Positions 24,909-53,248 of a stretch of 64,000 nt of DNA are shown in pieces. Position 1 is the stretch's first letter. Every line of letters begins with the position of its first letter. The stretch comes from Nitrospirota bacterium (GTDB taxonomy: Bacteria > Nitrospirota > Thermodesulfovibrionia > Thermodesulfovibrionales > JdFR-85): positions 50 to 64,049 of the forward strand of contig JAADGG010000025.1 of NCBI GenBank assembly GCA_013152485.1, written 5' to 3'. Under the pieces are notes generated by a model. That model was given only the letters and a program-made list of their open reading frames with translations, ran no database searches and was not told the origin of the DNA. The position numbers and the translations under genes are program-made.

Positions 24909-25730
24909 CTACATCTCGAAGAAACCCTTTATGAAGGGCGTCTCCTTTTTCACTATCGAGCCGATATGCTCCACGTCTCCTTCAGTCAGGCCGCTCTTTC
25001 GCAGCAGGCGCTCCTTCTCTTCGTTCCAGGCCCCGTCGGCCTCGTTCCTCGGGGCGATGACCGCGGATAGGGCCTCGGCAAGATGCACCGTGACGGCGAT
25101 CCCCCGGTGTTTTTCACACCCCTCGAGGCAGTGGTGGTACCTTACGGCAAAGACTATCTCTTCGGGGAAGAGGGAGGACTCCAGAAACCATCCTCCGGCT
25201 GTGCCGTGGTCGGTGTTGAAGAGTTCCTTTTCCTTCTCCGTCACCGCTTCGTCGAACATCACGGCCTTGTACTCAGGAGCATAGAGGGTATAGAAGATGA
25301 CGCGTCCGATGTCGTGCAGTAGTCCGCCGAGGAAGCATACCCCGCCCGATGTGACCGGAACCTTGTCGCACAGGAGTCCCGCGATCAGTCCGACCTCATA
25401 GCTGTGGGCCCAGAACTCCTTCATACTCTTTGCCTCGCCCCTGCCGAGGAGCTCGAAGACCGATATGCTTATGGCGATGCTCCTGACGAGGTCGTAACCC
25501 AGGAGCAGCACGGCCTGCTCGAGGTTGTTCACGAGGCCGGAGTGCCAGAAGTACGGGGCATTCGCTATGGCCACGACCCTCTCGGCGAGACTCTGGTCGT
25601 GCTCGATTATCTCGGACAGTTCGACGAACGAAGAGTTTTCGTCGTCAATGGTCTCCAGGAGCCGCTTCATCACGACCGGGATGGTCGACAGGGTCTTCAG
25701 CCGGCCTATATCCCTTCTAACGTCCCTCAC
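24909..25730 (-). CDS. HDOD domain-containing signalling protein
   Basis: 273-aa ORF. The domain pattern includes LP..P.V..RLL..., GLLHDIG and RYHH. It overlaps the upstream gene by 4 nt. Confidence 0.75.
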   Translation of the reverse strand: MRDVRRDIGRLKTLSTIPVVMKRLLETIDDENSSFVELSEIIEHDQSLAERVVAIANAPYFWHSGLVNNLEQAVLLLGYDLVRSIAISISVFELLGRGEAKSMKEFWAHSYEVGLIAGLLCDKVPVTSGGVCFLGGLLHDIGRVIFYTLYAPEYKAVMFDEAVTEKEKELFNTDHGTAGGWFLESSLFPEEIVFAVRYHHCLEGCEKHRGIAVTVHLAEALSAVIAPRNEADGAWNEEKERLLRKSGLTEGDVEHIGSIVKKETPFIKGFFEM

Positions 25731-26653
25731 TCTTCGTCTCCGGGAAAACTCTCGAACAGGGTTTTGAACCTTTCGATGCTCACGGGTTTTTCGAGTATCC
25801 TGATGTCTCCCCTCTTCTTGACCCGTTCGACCTCGAACGACAGCGTGTCCCCGGTCAGAAGCCAGAGCCGCTTCTTGTCGATGAATCTTTCGGCCTTCTC
25901 GATGAACGTTATACCGTCCATCTCGGGCATCCTGAGGTCGACGAGAACGAAATCGAACTCTTCCTCGGCCAGGACCTCGAGGGCCTTCAGCGGTGAGGAC
26001 ATCACGCGGGCCTCATGTCCCAGGAGCGTGAGGAACTCCTTGAAGACGTCGACGACTATTGCGTCGTCATCGATGACCAGTATCCTGAACGACCTGCTCT
26101 CCTTTCTTTCCGGTCCGGGCTTGAGGAGCGGCATCTCGATGCGGAACTTCCTGCCCTTCTTCGTGTGGCTCAAGAACATCTCCCCGCCGTGGATCTTGAT
26201 GATCCTGTTGGCCAGCGGTGTGCCGAGCCCTCTCATCTTTCCCGGTATGTCGTGTGACCTGAATATATCGACCGATACATCCTGTGATTCATTTATGGAG
26301 TCCCTGAGCCTCAGCACCGCCTTACCATCTTCCTGTGCCGTTGAGACGACCAGACGCCTCTCGCCCTCGTGTCCCTCGAATGACTTTATGATGCCGAGCA
26401 GCAGATGGAGCAGCGCCTGCAGCAGGAGGTGAAAATCACCCTTGACGAAAAGCGGTTCCTTGGTGAGGTTTACTGTTATCGGGATGTTCCTCACCCTCAT
26501 CTGATACTCGAGCAGCGATACAGCCTTCCTGACCAGACCGTTGAGGTCGAGCGGAGCGGCCCCTGCGGGCTCCTCCTTTTGAGTGTATATCTTTAAGGGG
26601 TTTTTATTGCTTTGCTCCATTATCCATCCATGACGAACGGTTACCGATACCAT
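25727..26653 (-). CDS. Degenerate HATPase_c domain fused to a response-regulator receiver (no HisKA/H-box)
   Basis: 308-aa ORF. The ATPase-like half has the N-box positions as LLHLLLGIIKS (no Asn), no DxGxG and a partial G2 (GLGTPLA). The receiver half is intact (ILVIDDD...VLVDLRMPEMDG...K). No phosphoacceptor His domain lies upstream. Confidence 0.7.
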   Translation of the reverse strand: MVSVTVRHGWIMEQSNKNPLKIYTQKEEPAGAAPLDLNGLVRKAVSLLEYQMRVRNIPITVNLTKEPLFVKGDFHLLLQALLHLLLGIIKSFEGHEGERRLVVSTAQEDGKAVLRLRDSINESQDVSVDIFRSHDIPGKMRGLGTPLANRIIKIHGGEMFLSHTKKGRKFRIEMPLLKPGPERKESRSFRILVIDDDAIVVDVFKEFLTLLGHEARVMSSPLKALEVLAEEEFDFVLVDLRMPEMDGITFIEKAERFIDKKRLWLLTGDTLSFEVERVKKRGDIRILEKPVSIERFKTLFESFPGDEE

Positions 26654-26786
26654 TTTAGCAGAAATTAAAAAAAATTAAAATTTGCAATGCACGGGAACCC
26701 CCCGTGTTAAAGTTTTCCGCCGTCGGGCCGATATGAGGCTGAAGGGACGGCTTCCGCCGCACTGCCGAGAGACAGGAGAAACTCCC

Positions 26787-27254
26787 ATGAAAATACATGC
26801 CGGCAATATGACAATTAAGCTGCTCGCAGCCTTTACCGTGTTCCTCTCGTGCGCGGTCCTGCCGTCCCGCGCGGTCGGCATCGGACCGCACAACGACATA
26901 ATGCTGAACACCAGCATACGCTGCTCCGACTGTCACGAGACCGTCTCTCTCAACGAGTTGTCCCCTGAGTTCAGCGACTCCACCGACAGGGTCTGTCTGC
27001 GGTGCCATCGGAGGGACGGGGACGCGCCCCTTTCCCATCCCGTGGGGATAAAGGTGAAGTCCGCCTTTCCTGCGGACGTTCCCTTGAGCAGCGACGGCAG
27101 GCTCATGTGCATCACGTGCCATACCTTTCACACATCCTCCTATCTCCCGGTCCTCAAGAGGAAGGTCTATATAAGGAGGGGGATTCTGGAGAGAGACTTC
27201 TGTCAGAGGTGCCACGGTGAGGACGTGCGCGGCAAAACGGTCGTCTCGTACTGA
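26787..27254 (+). CDS. Periplasmic tetraheme c-type cytochrome
   Basis: Start at ATG 26787 (RBS aggaga 26774-26779) gives the signal peptide MKIHAGNMTIKLLAAFTVFLSCAVLPSRAVG. There are four CxxCH motifs (CSDCH, CLRCH, CITCH, CQRCH). Confidence 0.8.
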   Translation: MKIHAGNMTIKLLAAFTVFLSCAVLPSRAVGIGPHNDIMLNTSIRCSDCHETVSLNELSPEFSDSTDRVCLRCHRRDGDAPLSHPVGIKVKSAFPADVPLSSDGRLMCITCHTFHTSSYLPVLKRKVYIRRGILERDFCQRCHGEDVRGKTVVSY

Positions 27255-47382: not shown

Positions 47383-47412
47383 TTGACAAAAACTGCGTGG
47401 TTGTGATAGATT
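47383..47412 (+). promoter_or_regulatory. Candidate sigma70 promoter for hemL
   Basis: TTGACA (47383-47388), 18-nt spacer, TAGATT (47407-47412), within a locally AT-rich intergenic stretch. Confidence 0.3.
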
Positions 47413-47475: not shown

Positions 47476-48786
47476 ATGAAGAAACGTAACAAGACAAAAA
47501 AACTCAAGAACGACAAGTCCAAGAGGCTGTTCAAAAAGGCACGGCTGTTCATCCCCGGAGGCGTCAACAGTCCCGTAAGGGCGTTCAAGGCCGTCGGGGG
47601 CAGCCCGGTCTTCATAGCCTCGGCAAAGGGCTCCAAGATACAGGATGTGGATGGCAATGTATATATAGATTATGTGCTTTCCTGGGGACCAATGATACTC
47701 GGCCACGCTCATCCGACCGTGGTGAGGGCGCTGAAGGCGGCCGTTGAACGGGGGACGAGTTACGGCGCGCCGACGGGCCTGGAGGTGAAGCTTGCGAAGA
47801 TGGTGCTGAAGGCCTATCCATCCATGGATATGGTGAGGATGGTCAACTCCGGCACCGAGGCGACCATGAGCGCCATCAGGGCCGCCAGAGGCTTTACCGG
47901 AAGGGACAAGGTCGTAAAGTTCGAGGGGTGTTATCACGGTCATGCCGACGGCCTGCTGGTCAAGGCCGGCTCGGGAGCGGTCACCTTCGGAGTTCCGGAC
48001 AGTCCGGGAGTCCCGGGCTCTTACGCAAGGAATACGCTGACCGTGCCCTTCAACGACCTGAAGACGCTGAAGGGCGTCATCGAGAAGGACTGGAGGAACA
48101 TAGCCTGTGTGATCATCGAGCCTGTAGTCGGCAACATGGGCTGTGTCCTTCCGAAGAAGGGCTTCCTCGAAGGCCTGAGGAGGCTGACCAAGAAGTACGG
48201 GATCGTGCTCATCTTCGACGAGGTGATGACGGGATTCCGTGTCTCCTACGGGGGAGCTCAGGGGTACTACGGCATAAAGCCTGACATGACATGTCTGGGC
48301 AAGGTGATAGGCGGCGGTCTTCCCGTAGGCGCCTACGGGGGCAGGGCGGAGATCATGTCGGGGATTTCCCCCGAGGGGCCTGTTTACCAGGCAGGCACAC
48401 TCTCGGGCAATCCGCTTGCCATGACCGCCGGCATAGAGACACTGAAGCTGCTTTCCAGAAAAGGGGTGTACGAGAGGCTGGAGGAGAAGGCGAGGGCCCT
48501 GGAGGAAGGTCTCAAGGATGCCGCCAAGCGCGCGGGTGTAAAGACGAGGTTCTACAGGGCCGGCACCATGTTCTGCACATACTTTACGGACAGGGGGGTT
48601 CATGACTACAGCAGTGCAAAACTTTCGGACACTGAAAGATTTGCCAGGTTCTTCAAGGGGATGCTCTCAAGGGGAGTGAGCATAGCTCCGAGCCAGTTCG
48701 AGGCCGGATTCATATCACTTGCGCATACCGGCCGGGACATCGAAAAGACTATAGGGGCTGCGTACGAGGCGATGAAGGATATATAG
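47476..48786 (+). CDS. hemL: Glutamate-1-semialdehyde 2,1-aminomutase
   Basis: Has [28 protein letters not shown] and a PLP-Lys region. I prefer ATG 47476 to the track start 47416. Confidence 0.9.
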
Positions 48787-48888: not shown

Positions 48889-49872
48889 ATGAAGTGGTTG
48901 AGTTGGGTAACAGAAAGCCTCACCCTGAAGGGCAAGATAATTATTGCTGTACTGCTCCTCGTAATAATTGTCGGAGGTGGTGTCGTAGCCTTCAAGTTTT
49001 ACGACTTTACCCAGAATAACCCCAAATTCTGTATCAGTTGCCATCTCATGAAACCAGCCTACGACGCCTGGCAGAAGAGTGAACATACCGGTATCAACTG
49101 TCACGAGTGCCATCACCTATCCATCCCGGAACAGAACAAACTTCTCATTACATTTGTCCTCCACAGGCCGAAGAACGTCCCGCCGAGGCACGGCAAGGTG
49201 ATAGTGCCCTGGAAGTACTGCGTCGAGTGTCATTGGGAGAAGGACGACAAGTATCCCAACGCCAAGAAGATAAACGATTCCAGGATGCATGCAAAGCATT
49301 ACTTCATGGAGAAGATAGAGTGTTCCAAGTGTCACGGGTATGTGGTGCACAAGTTCACGCCGGAGGAGCGCTTCTGCCTGCGGTGCCACAAGGGCAAGGA
49401 GGTGCACGGTGTGGGCATGGAGGGGCTTGCGTGTCTCAACTGTCATACCGACAGGACGGTGGACCTCAGGCCCGGAAGGAAGAAGTGCCTCTTCTGTCAC
49501 GGCAGTGAAGAGGTCAGAAAGGAGCTCATAGCGGATAACACCATAGACGTGCAGTTCTTCCTGCCCGGGAAGGAGACGATCGGCAAGGCCGACAAGATCG
49601 ATGTCCCCAAGGATGCACCTATGCAGTTCTACTGCTACAAGTGCCATAAACCTCACGCAAAGATAATGCCGGTCTATGGCACATGTCTGAGTTGTCATCC
49701 GCAGATACTGAACGTGGGCAGGCACAAGCTGCATGTACAGACGATGGGTCTTGAATGCAAGTCCTGTCACCTGCCGCATTCGTGGAGGGTGAGCAGGGAG
49801 CAGGCCAAGACCACATGCACCCAGTGTCATGCGTACAAGGACCCGCTTACCTTTATCGGTCCCCAGGGTTGA
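48889..49872 (+). CDS. Membrane-anchored 11-heme c-type cytochrome with NapC/NirT/NrfH-like N-terminus
   Basis: One N-terminal TM helix, then FCISCHLMKPAYDAWQKSEHTGINCHECH (NapC/NirT signature). There are 11 CxxCH motifs counted by eye. SD GAGGTG lies 6 nt before ATG 48889. Confidence 0.8.
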   Translation: MKWLSWVTESLTLKGKIIIAVLLLVIIVGGGVVAFKFYDFTQNNPKFCISCHLMKPAYDAWQKSEHTGINCHECHHLSIPEQNKLLITFVLHRPKNVPPRHGKVIVPWKYCVECHWEKDDKYPNAKKINDSRMHAKHYFMEKIECSKCHGYVVHKFTPEERFCLRCHKGKEVHGVGMEGLACLNCHTDRTVDLRPGRKKCLFCHGSEEVRKELIADNTIDVQFFLPGKETIGKADKIDVPKDAPMQFYCYKCHKPHAKIMPVYGTCLSCHPQILNVGRHKLHVQTMGLECKSCHLPHSWRVSREQAKTTCTQCHAYKDPLTFIGPQG

Positions 49873-49963
49873 GCTGTAAAAAGCGGGCGGTGCTGTGTTC
49901 CTGATGTTTTAAGAGACTTTACAACGATAAACTTCATAACCAAAAACAAGAGGAGGCACGTTT

Positions 49964-50434
49964 ATGAGCAGTCATGTGTTGCGGCCCCTGTGGGTAGTGA
50001 TAATCATCGTCATCCTTATTCTCGTTGCAAGGTTCGTCATTGTTCCGCCTGATTTCGGAATCCAGGAGAGAGGGTTCATGTACGGGTACCACCGGAAGAG
50101 CAATGAGGATGACTGGAAGGCCTTCAAGGTGAAGTACAAGACGAGGAAGTACTGCAAGGATTGTCATCCTGACAAGTACGAACCCATCATGTCTTCGAAG
50201 CACAGGATAATCCAGTGTGAAAACTGCCACGGACCTGCCGTCGACCATCCCGAAGATCCGCCGAAGCTCGTCGTCGACAAGAGCAGGTCACTCTGTATAA
50301 GGTGTCATGCCCGCCTTCTTTATCCGAGAACGGAGAGGGCCAAGATCAAGGGCATAGATCCTGAAGAACACAATGCAGGTATGGAGTGCAGTATGTGTCA
50401 TAACCCGCATAAACCAGATATGGAGGGTTGGTAA
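49964..50434 (+). CDS. Membrane-anchored tetraheme c-type cytochrome
   Basis: 156-aa ORF with an N-terminal TM helix and four CxxCH motifs (CKDCH, CENCH, CIRCH, CSMCH). Confidence 0.8.
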   Translation: MSSHVLRPLWVVIIIVILILVARFVIVPPDFGIQERGFMYGYHRKSNEDDWKAFKVKYKTRKYCKDCHPDKYEPIMSSKHRIIQCENCHGPAVDHPEDPPKLVVDKSRSLCIRCHARLLYPRTERAKIKGIDPEEHNAGMECSMCHNPHKPDMEGW

Positions 50435-51204
50435 TGAGTATATCGCGTAGAGACTTTTTATTGTCCACTCTGAAGATAGCTGCTGCATCGGCGCTGCCGC
50501 TGAGTGCATTCAAGATTCTGAGCCCTGCGGAGGCAAGGGCCGCGATCGAGGCCACCAGTGTAAGGTGGGGCTTCCTGGTCGACACCTACAAGTGTGTGGG
50601 CTGCGGGTTCTGCGTGAAGGCCTGCAAGCTCGAGAACGAGGTGCCATACGATGCCCCCGTCACCAGGACGTGGGTCGAGAGGTATCTCATACTGAAGGAC
50701 GGCCGGATGGTGGCTGATACACCCCTCGGCGGGAGGGACGGATTCACCAAGCTCGAGATACAGGAGGAGATAGTAGAGCCCAAGGATGTCTCGAAGGCCT
50801 TCTTCGTTCCCAAGCTCTGCAACCAGTGTGAAAATCCGCCCTGCGTTCAGGTGTGTCCCGTCGGTGCGACCTACCAGACGGCTGACGGTGTTGTGCTTGT
50901 CGACAGGACGTGGTGCATCGGATGCGGTTACTGCATAATGGCGTGTCCCTACGGCGTGAGGTTCTTCCACCCCGTGTACAAGGTGGCGGAGAAATGCACC
51001 TTCTGCTATCACCGCATCAACAAGGGCATGAAGACGGCCTGTGTGGGGGCCTGTCCGTTCGGAGCGAGGCAGATAGGGAACCTGAAGGACCCCAACGACC
51101 CTGTTACAAAGACGATCATGACTGAGAGGGTTGCTGTCCTGAAAGATGAATATGGAACAAAACCCCAGGTCTACTACATCGGCCTGGATGAAAATGTGAG
51201 GTGA
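50434..51204 (+). CDS. Tat-exported 4Fe-4S ferredoxin-type subunit (NrfC/PsrB/HybA-like)
   Basis: MSISRRDFLL twin-arginine signal and several CxxCxxCxxxCP cluster motifs. The start overlaps the upstream stop (TAATG). Confidence 0.85.
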   Translation: MSISRRDFLLSTLKIAAASALPLSAFKILSPAEARAAIEATSVRWGFLVDTYKCVGCGFCVKACKLENEVPYDAPVTRTWVERYLILKDGRMVADTPLGGRDGFTKLEIQEEIVEPKDVSKAFFVPKLCNQCENPPCVQVCPVGATYQTADGVVLVDRTWCIGCGYCIMACPYGVRFFHPVYKVAEKCTFCYHRINKGMKTACVGACPFGARQIGNLKDPNDPVTKTIMTERVAVLKDEYGTKPQVYYIGLDENVR

Positions 51205-52460
51205 TGAAAATGACAGAAGCATGGTCGTATCCTGAAGCCTTATGGACGGTTAAAGATCTTTTTGTCTACCCGAACGAATACATCTACTGGAGTGTCCAGA
51301 TCGTCATGTACCCGTTGATGACTGGACTGGTTGCAGGAGCGTTCGTCCTGTCGTCCCTGTACCATGTCTTCGGACTGAAGGACCTGAAGGATATGGCGAA
51401 GTTCTCTCTCGTCTTCTCTTTCGCCCTGCTCCTGGTGGCGCCGATGCCGCTCATGTTTCACCTGCAGCAGCCGCTGAGAGGCATGGAGGTCTTCTTCACA
51501 CCGCACTTCACATCCGCGATCTCCGCTTTCGGTATAGTCTTCTTCTCGTACTCGATAGTCGTGGCCACGGAGATATGGTTCGTATACCGGAAGTTTTTCG
51601 TCGAACAGGCCATCGCCCTGAAAGGCAAGGAGGGGCTCGGCAACAGCCTCAAGCAGAAGCTGTACTCTCTCCTTACGCTCGGGGCATACGACATAAGTGA
51701 AAAGGCACTGCACAAGGACGAAAAGGCGGTAAAGATCCTCGCAGGAATCGGTATACCCGTCGCCTGCTTCCTCCACGGCTATGCAGGCTTCATTTTCGGT
51801 TCGGTCAAGGCGAACGCCCTGTGGATGACGCCGCTTATGCCCGTCATATTCATAATGTCGGCCATCGTCTCGGGTATCGCCCTCTGTATGCTCACCTACA
51901 TAGTGATAATGGAGTGGAAGAAGTTCAGGATCAAGACCTCCAGGAAGTCGTGGGACGTGACGGCTGCCGAGGTCGGTGGTGCCGAGGTCGATCTCATAAG
52001 GAAGACCTCGAGGTATCTCATCGGTTTCATGATAGCCGCAATAACGCTCGAGATACTCGACCTCGTCTTCAGGGGATACACGGCCGTGAAATCCTGGGAG
52101 ATACTCCGTTCCGTCATATACGGGAAGGACTTCGTCGACATATTCATCCTGCAGTACGGGTTCGGAAACCTCCTTCCCTTCATAATGCTCGTCCTGCCCG
52201 GTCTCACGATAAGGCGGACCGCGATCGCCCTTGTCCTGGTCATCTTCGGTGTCTTCATGATGAGGTGGAACGTCGTTATCGGCGGACAGGCGTTTTCTCT
52301 ATCGTTTGCCGGATACATGCACTACAAGCTGCCGTTCATCCCTGAGAACATAGAAACTTACAAGGAGGGCTTTTTCGGCGCACTCACCATAGGGTTGATG
52401 CCCTTCGCCCTCTTCTGGGTCATAAACAAGTTCATTCCGTCTCTGAAGTACCACAAGTAG
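51204..52460 (+). CDS. NrfD/PsrC-like polytopic membrane subunit (quinone-interacting)
   Basis: ~418-aa highly hydrophobic protein with many TM helices, placed after the FeS subunit as in NrfCD/PsrBC/Qrc/ACIII modules. Its start overlaps the FeS stop (TGATG). Confidence 0.75.
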   Translation: MKMTEAWSYPEALWTVKDLFVYPNEYIYWSVQIVMYPLMTGLVAGAFVLSSLYHVFGLKDLKDMAKFSLVFSFALLLVAPMPLMFHLQQPLRGMEVFFTPHFTSAISAFGIVFFSYSIVVATEIWFVYRKFFVEQAIALKGKEGLGNSLKQKLYSLLTLGAYDISEKALHKDEKAVKILAGIGIPVACFLHGYAGFIFGSVKANALWMTPLMPVIFIMSAIVSGIALCMLTYIVIMEWKKFRIKTSRKSWDVTAAEVGGAEVDLIRKTSRYLIGFMIAAITLEILDLVFRGYTAVKSWEILRSVIYGKDFVDIFILQYGFGNLLPFIMLVLPGLTIRRTAIALVLVIFGVFMMRWNVVIGGQAFSLSFAGYMHYKLPFIPENIETYKEGFFGALTIGLMPFALFWVINKFIPSLKYHK

Positions 52461-52477
52461 ACACGCCGACCTGTATT

Positions 52478-52515
52478 CCAGGCGGCGGGGACGTCCCGCC
52501 GCCTGGAGATTTTTT
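52478..52515 (+). terminator. Strong rho-independent terminator closing the cytochrome operon
   Basis: Perfect 12-bp stem ccaggcggcggg (52478-52489) with cccgccgcctgg (52495-52506), a 5-nt loop, then aga and T6 (52510-52515). Confidence 0.8.
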
Positions 52516-52671
52516 GTCCGTATTTGTTTTAAAATCAGTCTGTGTCACGGTGTTACCGTAATAGGATTCCGCCGGCCTGCTGCAGGAAGCTCGACCCGCC
52601 CTTCCCGAAGAAGGAGATGCCTGCCAAGCCCCCGTATACTCTCGCCGGTCTGCTTTTGAGCGGGTGACGGG

Positions 52672-52914
52672 GTGGGGAGAAACAACAAGAGGAAGGAACT
52701 GTGGCGTCAGCTGATGGATGCGAGCGTCCTCCCGCTGAACCTCGTGGCCGCAACCTTCGTGGGGTTTGCCATCGGGTACGGTCTCGACAGTCTCTTCGGG
52801 ACCTCTCCGTATCTCACGGTCTTCTTCTTCATCATGGGCATAATTGCAGGCTTCAGGGAACTCTTCAGGTACGCAAGGAGAATGGAACGTGAAGATGATA
52901 AGAAGGATAAATAG
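52672..52914 (+). CDS. atpZ: AtpZ/AtpI-family small membrane protein
   Basis: 80-aa ORF (GTG start) with two TM helices. The pattern LNLVAATFVGFAIGYGLD......FFFIMGIIAGF is typical of AtpZ (PF09527-like). Confidence 0.6.
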   Translation: MGRNNKRKELWRQLMDASVLPLNLVAATFVGFAIGYGLDSLFGTSPYLTVFFFIMGIIAGFRELFRYARRMEREDDKKDK

Positions 52915-53248
52915 ACAGGCGGCTTACATACTGATCCCGCTGTCTCTGTTGTCGGCCTTCTTTGACTGGAAGAGGCTGCCCCTGAGCATACTGACCGGAG
53001 GGGCTTTGGCCCTCGTCAACCTGAAGGGTATTCAATGGGGAGTGGTCGGCCTGACGAGTCCCGAGGCCGTCCGGGGGGCGACCGGGAAGCTCCTCTTCTT
53101 CAGCATGTTCCGCCTCCTGATCGTCTTCATTGTACTTGCGGCGCTGCTGTACCTCGGGCTCATAAACGTCTTCGGAGCCCTTACCGGCCTTACGGTGGTC
53201 TTCGTGCTCGTGATGAAAGAGGGGCTGGTTGAGGCCCGGCGGCTGTGA
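52895..53248 (+). CDS. atpI: ATP synthase protein I-like membrane protein
   Basis: 117 aa from ATG 52895, overlapping the atpZ end. It is a four-TM hydrophobic protein resembling AtpI. No atpB/E/F follows. Confidence 0.5.
   Translation: MIRRINRQAAYILIPLSLLSAFFDWKRLPLSILTGGALALVNLKGIQWGVVGLTSPEAVRGATGKLLFFSMFRLLIVFIVLAALLYLGLINVFGALTGLTVVFVLVMKEGLVEARRL

Follow-up and report, generated by a model that had tools for sequence, protein, structure and literature searches.

The subject of this analysis is a four-gene operon in a 64-kilobase (kb) stretch of DNA from a hydrothermal member of the Thermodesulfovibrionia (Nitrospirota); the whole of this stretch is referred to as the window, and positions are counted on it throughout. 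The genes occupy positions 48889-52460 (+) and encode, in order, an 11-haem cytochrome (cyt11), a tetrahaem cytochrome (cyt4), an iron-sulfur protein (FeS) and an NrfD-like membrane protein, the last three of which make up what is termed the trio. Together, they specify 11 + 4 haems (as CxxCH motifs), four [4Fe-4S] motifs and one membrane protein of the NrfD family, and the preliminary description of this DNA as a four-gene, 15-haem operon is borne out by four open reading frames (ORFs) on the same strand. The genes and the features adjoining them are as follows:

47476-48786 (+): hemL, glutamate-1-semialdehyde aminomutase; an ORF, with Pfam Aminotran_3 recorded for its orthologue
48889-49872 (+): cyt11, membrane-anchored 11-haem cytochrome c with an NrfH/NapC-like N-terminal head; 327 amino acids (aa)
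49964-50434 (+): cyt4, tetrahaem cytochrome c with a transmembrane (TM) anchor (CbcS-like or 'tetrahaem' subunit); 156 aa
50434-51204 (+): FeS, an NrfC/PsrB/DsrO-type protein exported by twin-arginine translocation (Tat), with four [4Fe-4S] motifs; 256 aa
51204-52460 (+): NrfD-family integral membrane subunit, cofactor-less; 418 aa, Pfam NrfD
52476-52518 (+): intrinsic terminator, a G+C-rich hairpin followed by a T-run, assessed by folding against shuffles

The ATG of cyt11 has a ribosome-binding site, GAGGTG, 6 nucleotides upstream. Within the trio, the genes overlap: the TAA stop of cyt4 and the ATG start of FeS have base 50434 in common (TAATG), and the TGA stop of FeS and the ATG start of the NrfD-like gene have base 51204 in common (TGATG). 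The terminator has a stem of ~14-15 base pairs (bp) at 52476-52508, with 11 G-C pairs and a T-run downstream; its minimum free energy is -33.4 kcal/mol (z = -4.79), and 0 of 200 shuffles folded equally well. Both the overlapping starts and the strong terminator had been proposed previously, and both stand. Since neither the 102-bp gap between hemL and cyt11 (z = -0.79) nor the 91-bp gap between cyt11 and cyt4 (z = +0.19) holds a terminator or significant structure, the transcription unit probably begins with hemL, with hemL, cyt11, cyt4, FeS and NrfD being co-transcribed; a promoter-like site, for which the evidence is weak, lies upstream of hemL at 47383-47412. The ORF map, together with a Pfam scan of the unassigned long ORFs, revealed no molybdopterin, sirohaem or NrfA-type genes in the operon or in the 64-kb window, such that the absence of a catalytic subunit, also pointed out beforehand, holds for both. 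By the same means, no hydrogenase, formate dehydrogenase or porin-cytochrome genes were found within the window; dsrMK genes were likewise not found in it.

The product of the first gene of the operon, cyt11, has a single N-terminal hydrophobic helix (residues 17-35) and 11 CxxCH motifs, arranged such that the TM helix, haem 1 (CxxCHxM) and haem 2 make up an NrfH-like head, and nine more haems follow. All 11 motifs are invariant in 65 aligned homologues (11/11), and of 120 homologues 110 carry 11 motifs and the other 10 carry 10; because of this constancy, the haem-motif pattern is not due to chance, and neither the haem counts nor the NapC-like assignment is altered by the alignment. The family comprises 494 database matches, the best 120 of which are all at least 59 % identical. 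Every match with a taxon name belongs to the Nitrospirota/Thermodesulfovibrionales, and a scan of one genome per species located relatives in 204 species genomes; judged by the matches found, cyt11 is specific to the Nitrospirota/Thermodesulfovibrionia lineage. The closest relatives of the window itself are Nitrospirota metagenome-assembled genomes (MAGs) from hydrothermal settings, with sulfide-deposit and vent metagenomes as their origin; in one of them, Nitrospirae bacterium HyVt-450, cyt11 is 92 % identical, and synteny with the window is complete from tsf through to the GGDEF gene.

Several comparisons uphold the NapC/NirT/NrfH-like N-terminus previously ascribed to cyt11, the likeness to a known family being confined to the first ~60-80 residues. 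The Pfam model PF03264 (NapC/NirT N-terminal region) scores 34.8 bits against a cut-off of 24.1 over residues 20-79, albeit with an alignment that covers only model positions 6-73 of 174. The NCBIfam model for NrfH scores 49.8 (cut-off 134.2; residues 24-79, model positions 4-60 of 138) and that for NapC/NirT 16.1 (cut-off 310.6), and the full-length tetrahaem core of the family is matched by cyt11 in neither the Pfam nor the NCBIfam models. The top sequence match in the PDB is NrfH (2j7a_C), aligned over residues 27-76. The CxxCHxM motif at haem 1 (CISCHLM in the window) is present in 120 of 120 homologues, with Met54 invariant: in NrfH, the Met of this motif is the haem-1 ligand. Additionally, the spacing of 23 residues between haems 1 and 2 is as in NrfH, and the conserved His66 aligns with the His of the NrfH 'SGH' segment (His61 in NrfH). 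The TM helix, the haem-1 motif, the haem spacing and the conserved His are all shared with NrfH/CymA, which have four haems as against 11 in cyt11; moreover, the window encodes no NrfA partner.

Outside the haem motifs, eleven His residues of cyt11 are invariant or nearly so in the same 65 homologues, and the alignment contains no conserved extra Cys and no CxxCK motif; this combination argues for a role as an electron wire, as opposed to an open catalytic haem. A Foldseek search with an AlphaFold2 model of cyt11 (predicted local distance difference test, pLDDT, 76) returned no significant neighbour in the PDB, known catalytic multihaems included. Extended multihaem members of the NapC/NirT family are known, namely, the pentahaem TorC, the seven-haem ImcH and a decahaem protein noted in Geoglobus (PMC13591261, PMC8280799; the last in PMC8280799), and in the searchable literature we found neither the cyt11 undecahaem family nor its combination with the trio described. 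One related locus (L056, 9935-11982; such loci are designated here by L numbers) has tandem cyt11 paralogues upstream of the trio, the one of 343 aa with 10 CxxCH and the other of 334 aa with 11.

With respect to the trio, the subunit classes given in the preliminary description (TM-anchored tetrahaem, Tat-exported four-cluster FeS and NrfD family) are correct. cyt4 has one TM helix (residues 9-27) and four CxxCH motifs and, across phyla, His80, His95 and His149 are invariant and His136 nearly so; the conservation of these four distal His residues alongside the four motifs implies that cyt4 carries four bis-His haems. The family is broad, with 644 representative homologue clusters at E ≤ 1e-3, and has Geoglobus, Verrucomicrobiota and Planctomycetota among its members. 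FeS has a twin-arginine motif (SRRDFL) at its N-terminus and 16 Cys residues forming four cluster motifs, and it matches Pfam Fer4_11; its NCBIfam scores are all below cut-off (TtrB, 203.6; DsrO, 192.3 versus 200; NrfC, 163.3 versus 377.6; QrcC, 105.4 versus 400), and its top PDB match is PsrB (2vpw_B; 1e-47).

The third member of the trio scores 112.7 bits on the Pfam NrfD model and lies far below cut-off on the NCBIfam models for NrfD (36.9 versus 347.6), DsrP (33.7 versus 350), QrcD (23.1 versus 570) and HmcC. PDB sequence searches, with the single sequence and with a 37-sequence profile, gave no match even at E ≤ 10. Hydropathy indicates nine clear membrane segments. An AlphaFold2 model built with database homologues (pLDDT 77.8; predicted template-modelling score, pTM, 0.82) fits ActC best, as represented by four structures of alternative complex III (ACIII), with template-modelling scores (TM-scores) of 0.66-0.72 over ~405 columns, and the TM-score against the 8-helix PsrC is only 0.44. 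From this superposition and the weaker fit to PsrC, the modelled subunit falls in the long ~10-helix class with ActC, DsrP, QrcD, HmcC and HybB, as defined in PMC6303296, and it is presumed to provide a menaquinone/menaquinol site. Residues 1-27 of the NrfD-like protein (encoded by 51204-51284) are among its most conserved, with Trp14, Thr15, Lys17, Pro23, Asn24 and Glu25 invariant, and are modelled at pLDDT < 50 despite this conservation; possibly, they become ordered only at an interface with another subunit.

The trio also occurs by itself. A BLASTP search with the NrfD-like protein found at least 7999 homologues, the best 120 of which are at least 72 % identical and include sequences from Desulfobulbaceae, Desulfobacteraceae and Thermosulfuriphilus. 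In the Desulfobacterota genomes representing these three groups (Desulfobulbaceae, L083; Thermosulfuriphilus, L084; Desulfobacteraceae, L086), the trio is found in the same order and without cyt11. Its members closely resemble those of the window: cyt4 has 155-159 aa, FeS 254-257 aa and NrfD 410-424 aa, with identities for L083 and L084 of 51-58 %, 74-78 % and 73 %, respectively, and of 72 % for NrfD of L086. In a neighbour-joining tree without support values, the three Desulfobacterota NrfD sequences nest inside the Nitrospirota radiation, which suggests that the trio has been transferred between phyla; their NrfD identity to the window is 71-73 %, as compared with 66-69 % for many Thermodesulfovibrionia copies. 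Given that the trio stands alone in three Desulfobacterota genomes, it is, on the evidence of gene content, an autonomous module, with cyt11 being a lineage-resident gene linked to hemL. Immediately upstream of two of these stand-alone trios, and divergent from them, lies a gene for a large DUF2339 membrane protein (L083, 4620-6398, -; L086, 1-2025, -).

Synteny within the lineage was assessed in the best 80 of the 204 cyt11-positive species genomes, which yielded 72 informative loci. In 47 of these, cyt11 is followed directly by the trio, and in a further four there is an insert between them; in five, the trio precedes cyt11 and hemL is lacking, whereas in the remaining 16 cyt11 occurs without the trio inside the available flank. 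The five loci with the trio first form one clade in the NrfD tree, and so this order is probably the result of a single rearrangement. A hemL homologue lies upstream of cyt11 in most of the 80 loci (median gap ~52 bp). Many related loci have atpZ-atpI downstream of the trio, or directly after cyt11 if the trio is absent; indeed, the order hemL-cyt11-atpZ-atpI in L044 and L052 is that of the window backbone minus exactly the trio. In L060, L064 and L073, the place of the trio after cyt11 is taken by a PsrBCA-like cluster, comprising a PsrB-like protein, a PsrC-like protein and a 769-aa molybdopterin oxidoreductase, and the same loci encode a TorD-like chaperone and a 12-haem NapC-like cyt11 paralogue (23 % identity). 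These hemL-cyt11-PsrBCA-like arrangements are at L060/L081 10001-20091, L064 9989-16719 and L073; in L060, there is also a divergent set of small cytochrome, FeS and NrfD genes downstream of the PsrBCA-like genes.

Two further neighbours recur. In 12-13 of the 80 loci, a cluster encoding a Rieske protein, a cytochrome b and a pentahaem cytochrome c is found no more than 10 kb from cyt11, in varying positions: directly after NrfD (L005, L006, L010, L013, L014 and L043), between cyt11 and cyt4 (L058 and L059), after cyt11 (L028 and L062) or further away (L034 and L085). In ~12 loci, a gene for a chaperone of the TorD/NarJ family (PF02613) follows NrfD directly or a few kb downstream (for example, L085 9359-9889, and L021, L030, L036, L054, L057 and L070), and the FeS subunit may thus have a Tat-proofreading chaperone of its own. 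The window itself has neither the Rieske/cytochrome b/pentahaem cluster nor the chaperone gene. The neighbours that recur are, taken together, indicative of a shared respiratory neighbourhood linking menaquinone to the periplasm and not of a dedicated terminal reductase. In one locus of the clade that has the trio first and lacks hemL (L061, 14239-16652, -), putative hemC and hemA genes, assigned on N-terminal sequence only, lie ~4 kb downstream, and proximity to haem-synthesis genes would thus appear to recur there in another form.

The trio closely parallels two systems that are already described. With Cbc4 of Geobacter sulfurreducens (CbcS-CbcT-CbcU; GSU0068-0070), it shares the three-gene architecture and gene order, and both consist of an anchored tetrahaem of ~155-160 aa, a four-cluster FeS protein and a cofactor-less membrane subunit: the 160-aa CbcS comprises a TM anchor and a linker along with its four bis-His haems, there are four [4Fe-4S] clusters in CbcT, and the third protein, CbcU, is integral to the membrane (bioRxiv 10.1101/2025.04.14.648717). 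Cbc4 has been proposed to be a menaquinol:cytochrome c oxidoreductase that delivers electrons to periplasmic PpcA-type cytochromes (bioRxiv 10.1101/2025.04.14.648717); its knock-out gave no Fe or Mn phenotype, and its physiological role is described as unknown (bioRxiv 10.1101/2025.04.14.648717, PMC11434368, PMC13591261). Going by published descriptions, Geobacter cbcSTU adjoins neither an NrfH-like undecahaem nor hemL, whereas the window has both. The second system is the DsrOhPh-tetrahaem locus of cable bacteria, some Desulfobulbales and Gamma- and Betaproteobacteria, formerly a 'candidate alternative complex III' (PMC13047784), which combines, apart from dsrMKJ, the same set as the trio: a His-His tetrahaem, a DsrO-like FeS protein and a DsrP-like NrfD. 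Its function is stated to be unknown (PMC13047784; DsrMKJOP cryo-EM preprint, bioRxiv 10.64898/2026.08.25.746951). Cable bacteria carry an extra small gene, TMH1, that is lacking in the window, whereas the window adds cyt11. The stand-alone trio of the Desulfobulbaceae MAG (L083; 51/74/73 % identical to the window for cyt4, FeS and NrfD) can be set beside the DsrOhPh clade by architecture only. No Geobacter entry was returned by the cyt4 representative search, by an examination of 20 cyt4-family clusters or by one profile search built from distant members, the last of which found mostly ~245-aa cytochromes of other phyla.

Likenesses to other complexes are more partial, and of the resemblances listed in the preliminary description, that to Geobacter Cbc-type complexes holds (the architecture being that of Cbc4/CbcSTU), but membership of NrfBCD, Qrc or ACIII does not, in view of model scores and missing subunits. 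The trio resembles DsrJOP in its anchored small cytochrome c, Tat-exported four-cluster FeS protein and ten-TM-helix NrfD-family subunit, the last corresponding to DsrP, for which quinol oxidation is now shown structurally (bioRxiv 10.64898/2026.08.25.746951). However, DsrJ has three haems, one of them His/Cys-ligated, as against the four bis-His haems of cyt4, and the window has no dsrMK neighbours; canonical DsrJOP membership was rejected on these grounds and on the DsrO and DsrP scores given above. With ACIII (ActABCDEF), the trio shares the ActC fold of its NrfD-like subunit, and both have an anchored multihaem and an FeS subunit; ActB, however, is a ~1000-aa fusion with a molybdopterin-like domain, as against the 256-aa FeS protein, and the operon lacks the pentahaem ActA, ActD, ActE and the second NrfD-like subunit, ActF. 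Thus, only the ActC-like fold is held in common and ACIII membership was also rejected; in a published NrfD phylogeny, DsrPh is not grouped with ActC (PMC13047784). QrcABCD, NrfBCD and SirCD each have, like the trio, an NrfC/NrfD-type redox module coupled to c-type cytochromes, and the operon has no QrcB (which is molybdopterin-like but cofactor-less), NrfA, NrfB or SirA. Qrc membership was rejected because of the low QrcC and QrcD scores and the missing QrcB, Qrc having a hexahaem QrcA, and NrfABCD membership because of the NrfC and NrfD scores and the lack of NrfA and of the soluble pentahaem NrfB.

On balance, we favour the view that the operon encodes two co-expressed but separable menaquinone:periplasmic-cytochrome oxidoreductase modules, and not one new enzyme. 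Neither module carries a catalytic site. Module A, the trio, is by its architecture of the cross-phylum tetrahaem-NrfC-NrfD type, that is, Cbc4/CbcSTU or DsrOhPh-tetrahaem: it has the anchored bis-His tetrahaem, the Tat-exported four-cluster FeS protein encoded downstream of it, the NrfD-family protein as the third gene and no catalytic subunit. A quinol pocket on the periplasmic side is established for PsrC and ActC, and provides the template for this module. Menaquinol would bind to the ActC-like NrfD subunit on its periplasmic face, from where electrons would pass to the four [4Fe-4S] clusters of FeS and then, via the four bis-His haems of cyt4, to soluble periplasmic cytochromes or reductases; the path could also run in reverse. 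Module B, cyt11, would be a quinol dehydrogenase head of the NrfH/CymA type fused to a nine-haem wire, in which menaquinol would be oxidized at haem 1, as in NrfH and CymA, and the electrons sent on along ten further haems. SirCD is cited in PMC11434368 as being able to replace the NapC-type CymA in Shewanella and, as this substitution shows that both types of module can do the same job, a pair of parallel, differently tuned quinol dehydrogenases would be the simplest arrangement, and one that we hold to be a little better than an even proposition. Gene anatomy, cofactor motifs, topology signals, the assignments to families and folds, conservation and synteny are observed directly; quinone binding, the electron path, co-transcription and the parallel operation of the two modules are all features that we infer.

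A number of points weigh against this interpretation. The alignment of cyt11 with NrfH spans only ~60 residues, the likeness stopping after haem 2, and of the residues that form the quinol site in the known proteins (Lys82 and Asp89 in NrfH, and Lys91 in CymA), Lys82 and Asp89 of NrfH have no obvious counterpart in cyt11 at equal spacing. The likeness of the trio to CbcSTU and to the cable-bacteria genes is one of architecture, as taken from published descriptions. The potential of menaquinone lies above that of CbcS, which would be compatible with quinone reduction, such that electrons may flow either way; the midpoint potential of CbcS is -151 mV (PMC13591261). Lastly, cyt11 and the trio are linked in 56 of the 72 informative loci, in two gene orders, and such strong linkage is equally expected from a physical complex.

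The preliminary description had, indeed, envisaged one complex with two quinone sites, and the corresponding alternative is that all four proteins form a single membrane complex combining an NrfH-type haem site with an NrfD-type site, in the manner of DsrMKJOP, Hmc or ACIII, each of which likewise unites two quinone-family subunits. Besides the linkage, probable co-transcription and the overlapping genes of the trio agree with this, and such a pairing has precedents (bioRxiv 10.64898/2026.08.25.746951), although in DsrMKJOP just one of the two proved to be catalytic (same preprint). However, other phyla have a complete and highly conserved trio but no cyt11 with it, cyt11 lacks the trio in 16 loci and in three lies beside the PsrBCA-like cluster, and the junction between cyt11 and cyt4 is the only one within the cluster that has a gap (91 bp) rather than an overlap. 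We consequently regard a single complex as unlikely, and the four-subunit, two-quinone-site machine is better read as a three-subunit type that is already described, plus a lineage-specific NrfH-like undecahaem. Its fullest form, in which cyt11 docks on the trio to give a 15-haem, four-cluster machine with two chemically different menaquinone sites (the haem site and the NrfD pocket), is distinctly improbable; if it did exist, a quinone loop inside the complex or a mechanism resembling the Q cycle would be conceivable and, in some genomes, the machine would be wired further to the adjacent Rieske/cytochrome b/pentahaem complex. A different possibility, also unlikely and slightly more so than the single complex in general, is that the modules are opposed in a redox loop: a Qrc-like trio, fed by periplasmic cytochromes reduced by H2 or formate, would reduce menaquinone with protons from the cytoplasm, and cyt11 would reoxidize the menaquinol on behalf of periplasmic terminal reductases. 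In structural terms, the NrfD-like subunit is in the ten-TM-helix class that holds the electrogenic QrcD (PMC6303296), but so are the quinol oxidizers ActC and DsrP; likewise, the low potential of CbcS (PMC13591261) would suit quinone reduction, whereas the published proposals for both Cbc4 and DsrOhPh-tetrahaem favour the flow of electrons from quinol to the periplasm (bioRxiv 10.1101/2025.04.14.648717; PMC13047784). In Dissulfuribacter thermophilus, an NrfD-type protein with tetrahaem and FeS neighbours is 6.9 log2-fold up under H2/sulfite (PMC13490349), albeit that this set is only possibly related to the trio. Furthermore, the QrcC and QrcD scores are far below cut-off, there is no QrcB, and neither hydrogenase nor formate dehydrogenase genes were found in the window.

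The host lineages metabolize sulfur, the FeS score falls just short of the DsrO cut-off (192.3 versus 200), and a published phylogeny sets DsrPh close to the reductive DsrP (PMC13047784); on such grounds, the trio might be paralogous to DsrJOP and feed into DsrMK(J), whether in dissimilatory sulfite reduction or in sulfur disproportionation. We think this very unlikely, given the DsrP score, the four bis-His haems of cyt4 where DsrJ has three including a His/Cys haem, and the lack of nearby dsrMK genes in the window. Moreover, predicted structures of a DsrMKJ-OhPh assembly clash (DsrMKJOP preprint, bioRxiv 10.64898/2026.08.25.746951), and the DsrOhPh-tetrahaem locus is also present in organisms without sulfur metabolism (PMC13047784; bioRxiv 10.64898/2026.08.25.746951). 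We attach an equally small likelihood to the proposal that a cytochrome of the operon (cyt11 being the most plausible candidate) acts as a terminal reductase in its own right, or else as the point at the inner membrane from which an extracellular conduit to metals or sulfur begins, in which case to speak of 'no catalytic subunit' would mislead. Catalytic multihaem cytochromes do exist, for example, MccSep (PMC13510729), the extended NapC/NirT-family multihaems of Geoglobus have been proposed as entry points for extracellular electron transfer (PMC8280799), and the sulfide-deposit and vent origin of the relatives of the window genome would fit such a role. Nevertheless, cyt11 has eleven conserved non-motif His residues for its eleven haems, with no conserved extra Cys and no CxxCK, the Foldseek search with its model gave no significant match to known catalytic multihaems, and outer-membrane porin-cytochrome genes were not found in the window.

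In papers from 2025-2026 that deal with Geobacter Cbc4, the cable-bacteria DsrOhPh-tetrahaem and the structure of DsrMKJOP, attention is drawn to orphan tetrahaem-NrfC-NrfD complexes, which are said to be widespread but of unknown function. The preliminary description had allowed that the cluster might turn out to be a complex already described together with a catalytic partner: the trio type is indeed described (as Cbc4, DsrOhPh-tetrahaem and 'candidate ACIII'), albeit without an assigned function. To this picture, the present analysis adds that the tetrahaem-NrfC-NrfD module is a core, highly conserved feature of the Thermodesulfovibrionia, with FeS and NrfD 73-78 % identical to the Desulfobacterota copies, and that the neighbourhood in this lineage, namely, hemL, the NrfH-like undecahaem and often the Rieske/cytochrome b/pentahaem cluster and TorD-like chaperone, narrows the hypotheses as to its partners. 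Were the modules to act as quinone couplers, in parallel or in opposition, they would shape energy conservation in abundant sulfur-cycling bacteria of subsurface and hydrothermal environments.

The rest of the window is given over to housekeeping genes, including those for helicases, a copper ATPase, FtsH, GlnA/GlnE, pgk, frr, pyrH, tsf, rpsB, secA and trpE, among others, together with one small c3/c7-like tetrahaem, and a nearby partner reductase or outer-membrane conduit was accordingly rejected. This second small cytochrome (26784-27254, +) is of ~156 aa when read from an internal ATG, with four CxxCH and Pfam c3/c7/paired-CXXCH matches, and its gene adjoins a sensor-kinase/response-regulator gene at 25727-26653 (-); in the periplasm, the protein might serve the membrane modules as a soluble partner. 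Downstream of the operon (52672-53248, +) lie small membrane-protein genes of the AtpZ-like (PF09527) and AtpI-like types, which are followed by secA and not by ATP synthase genes.

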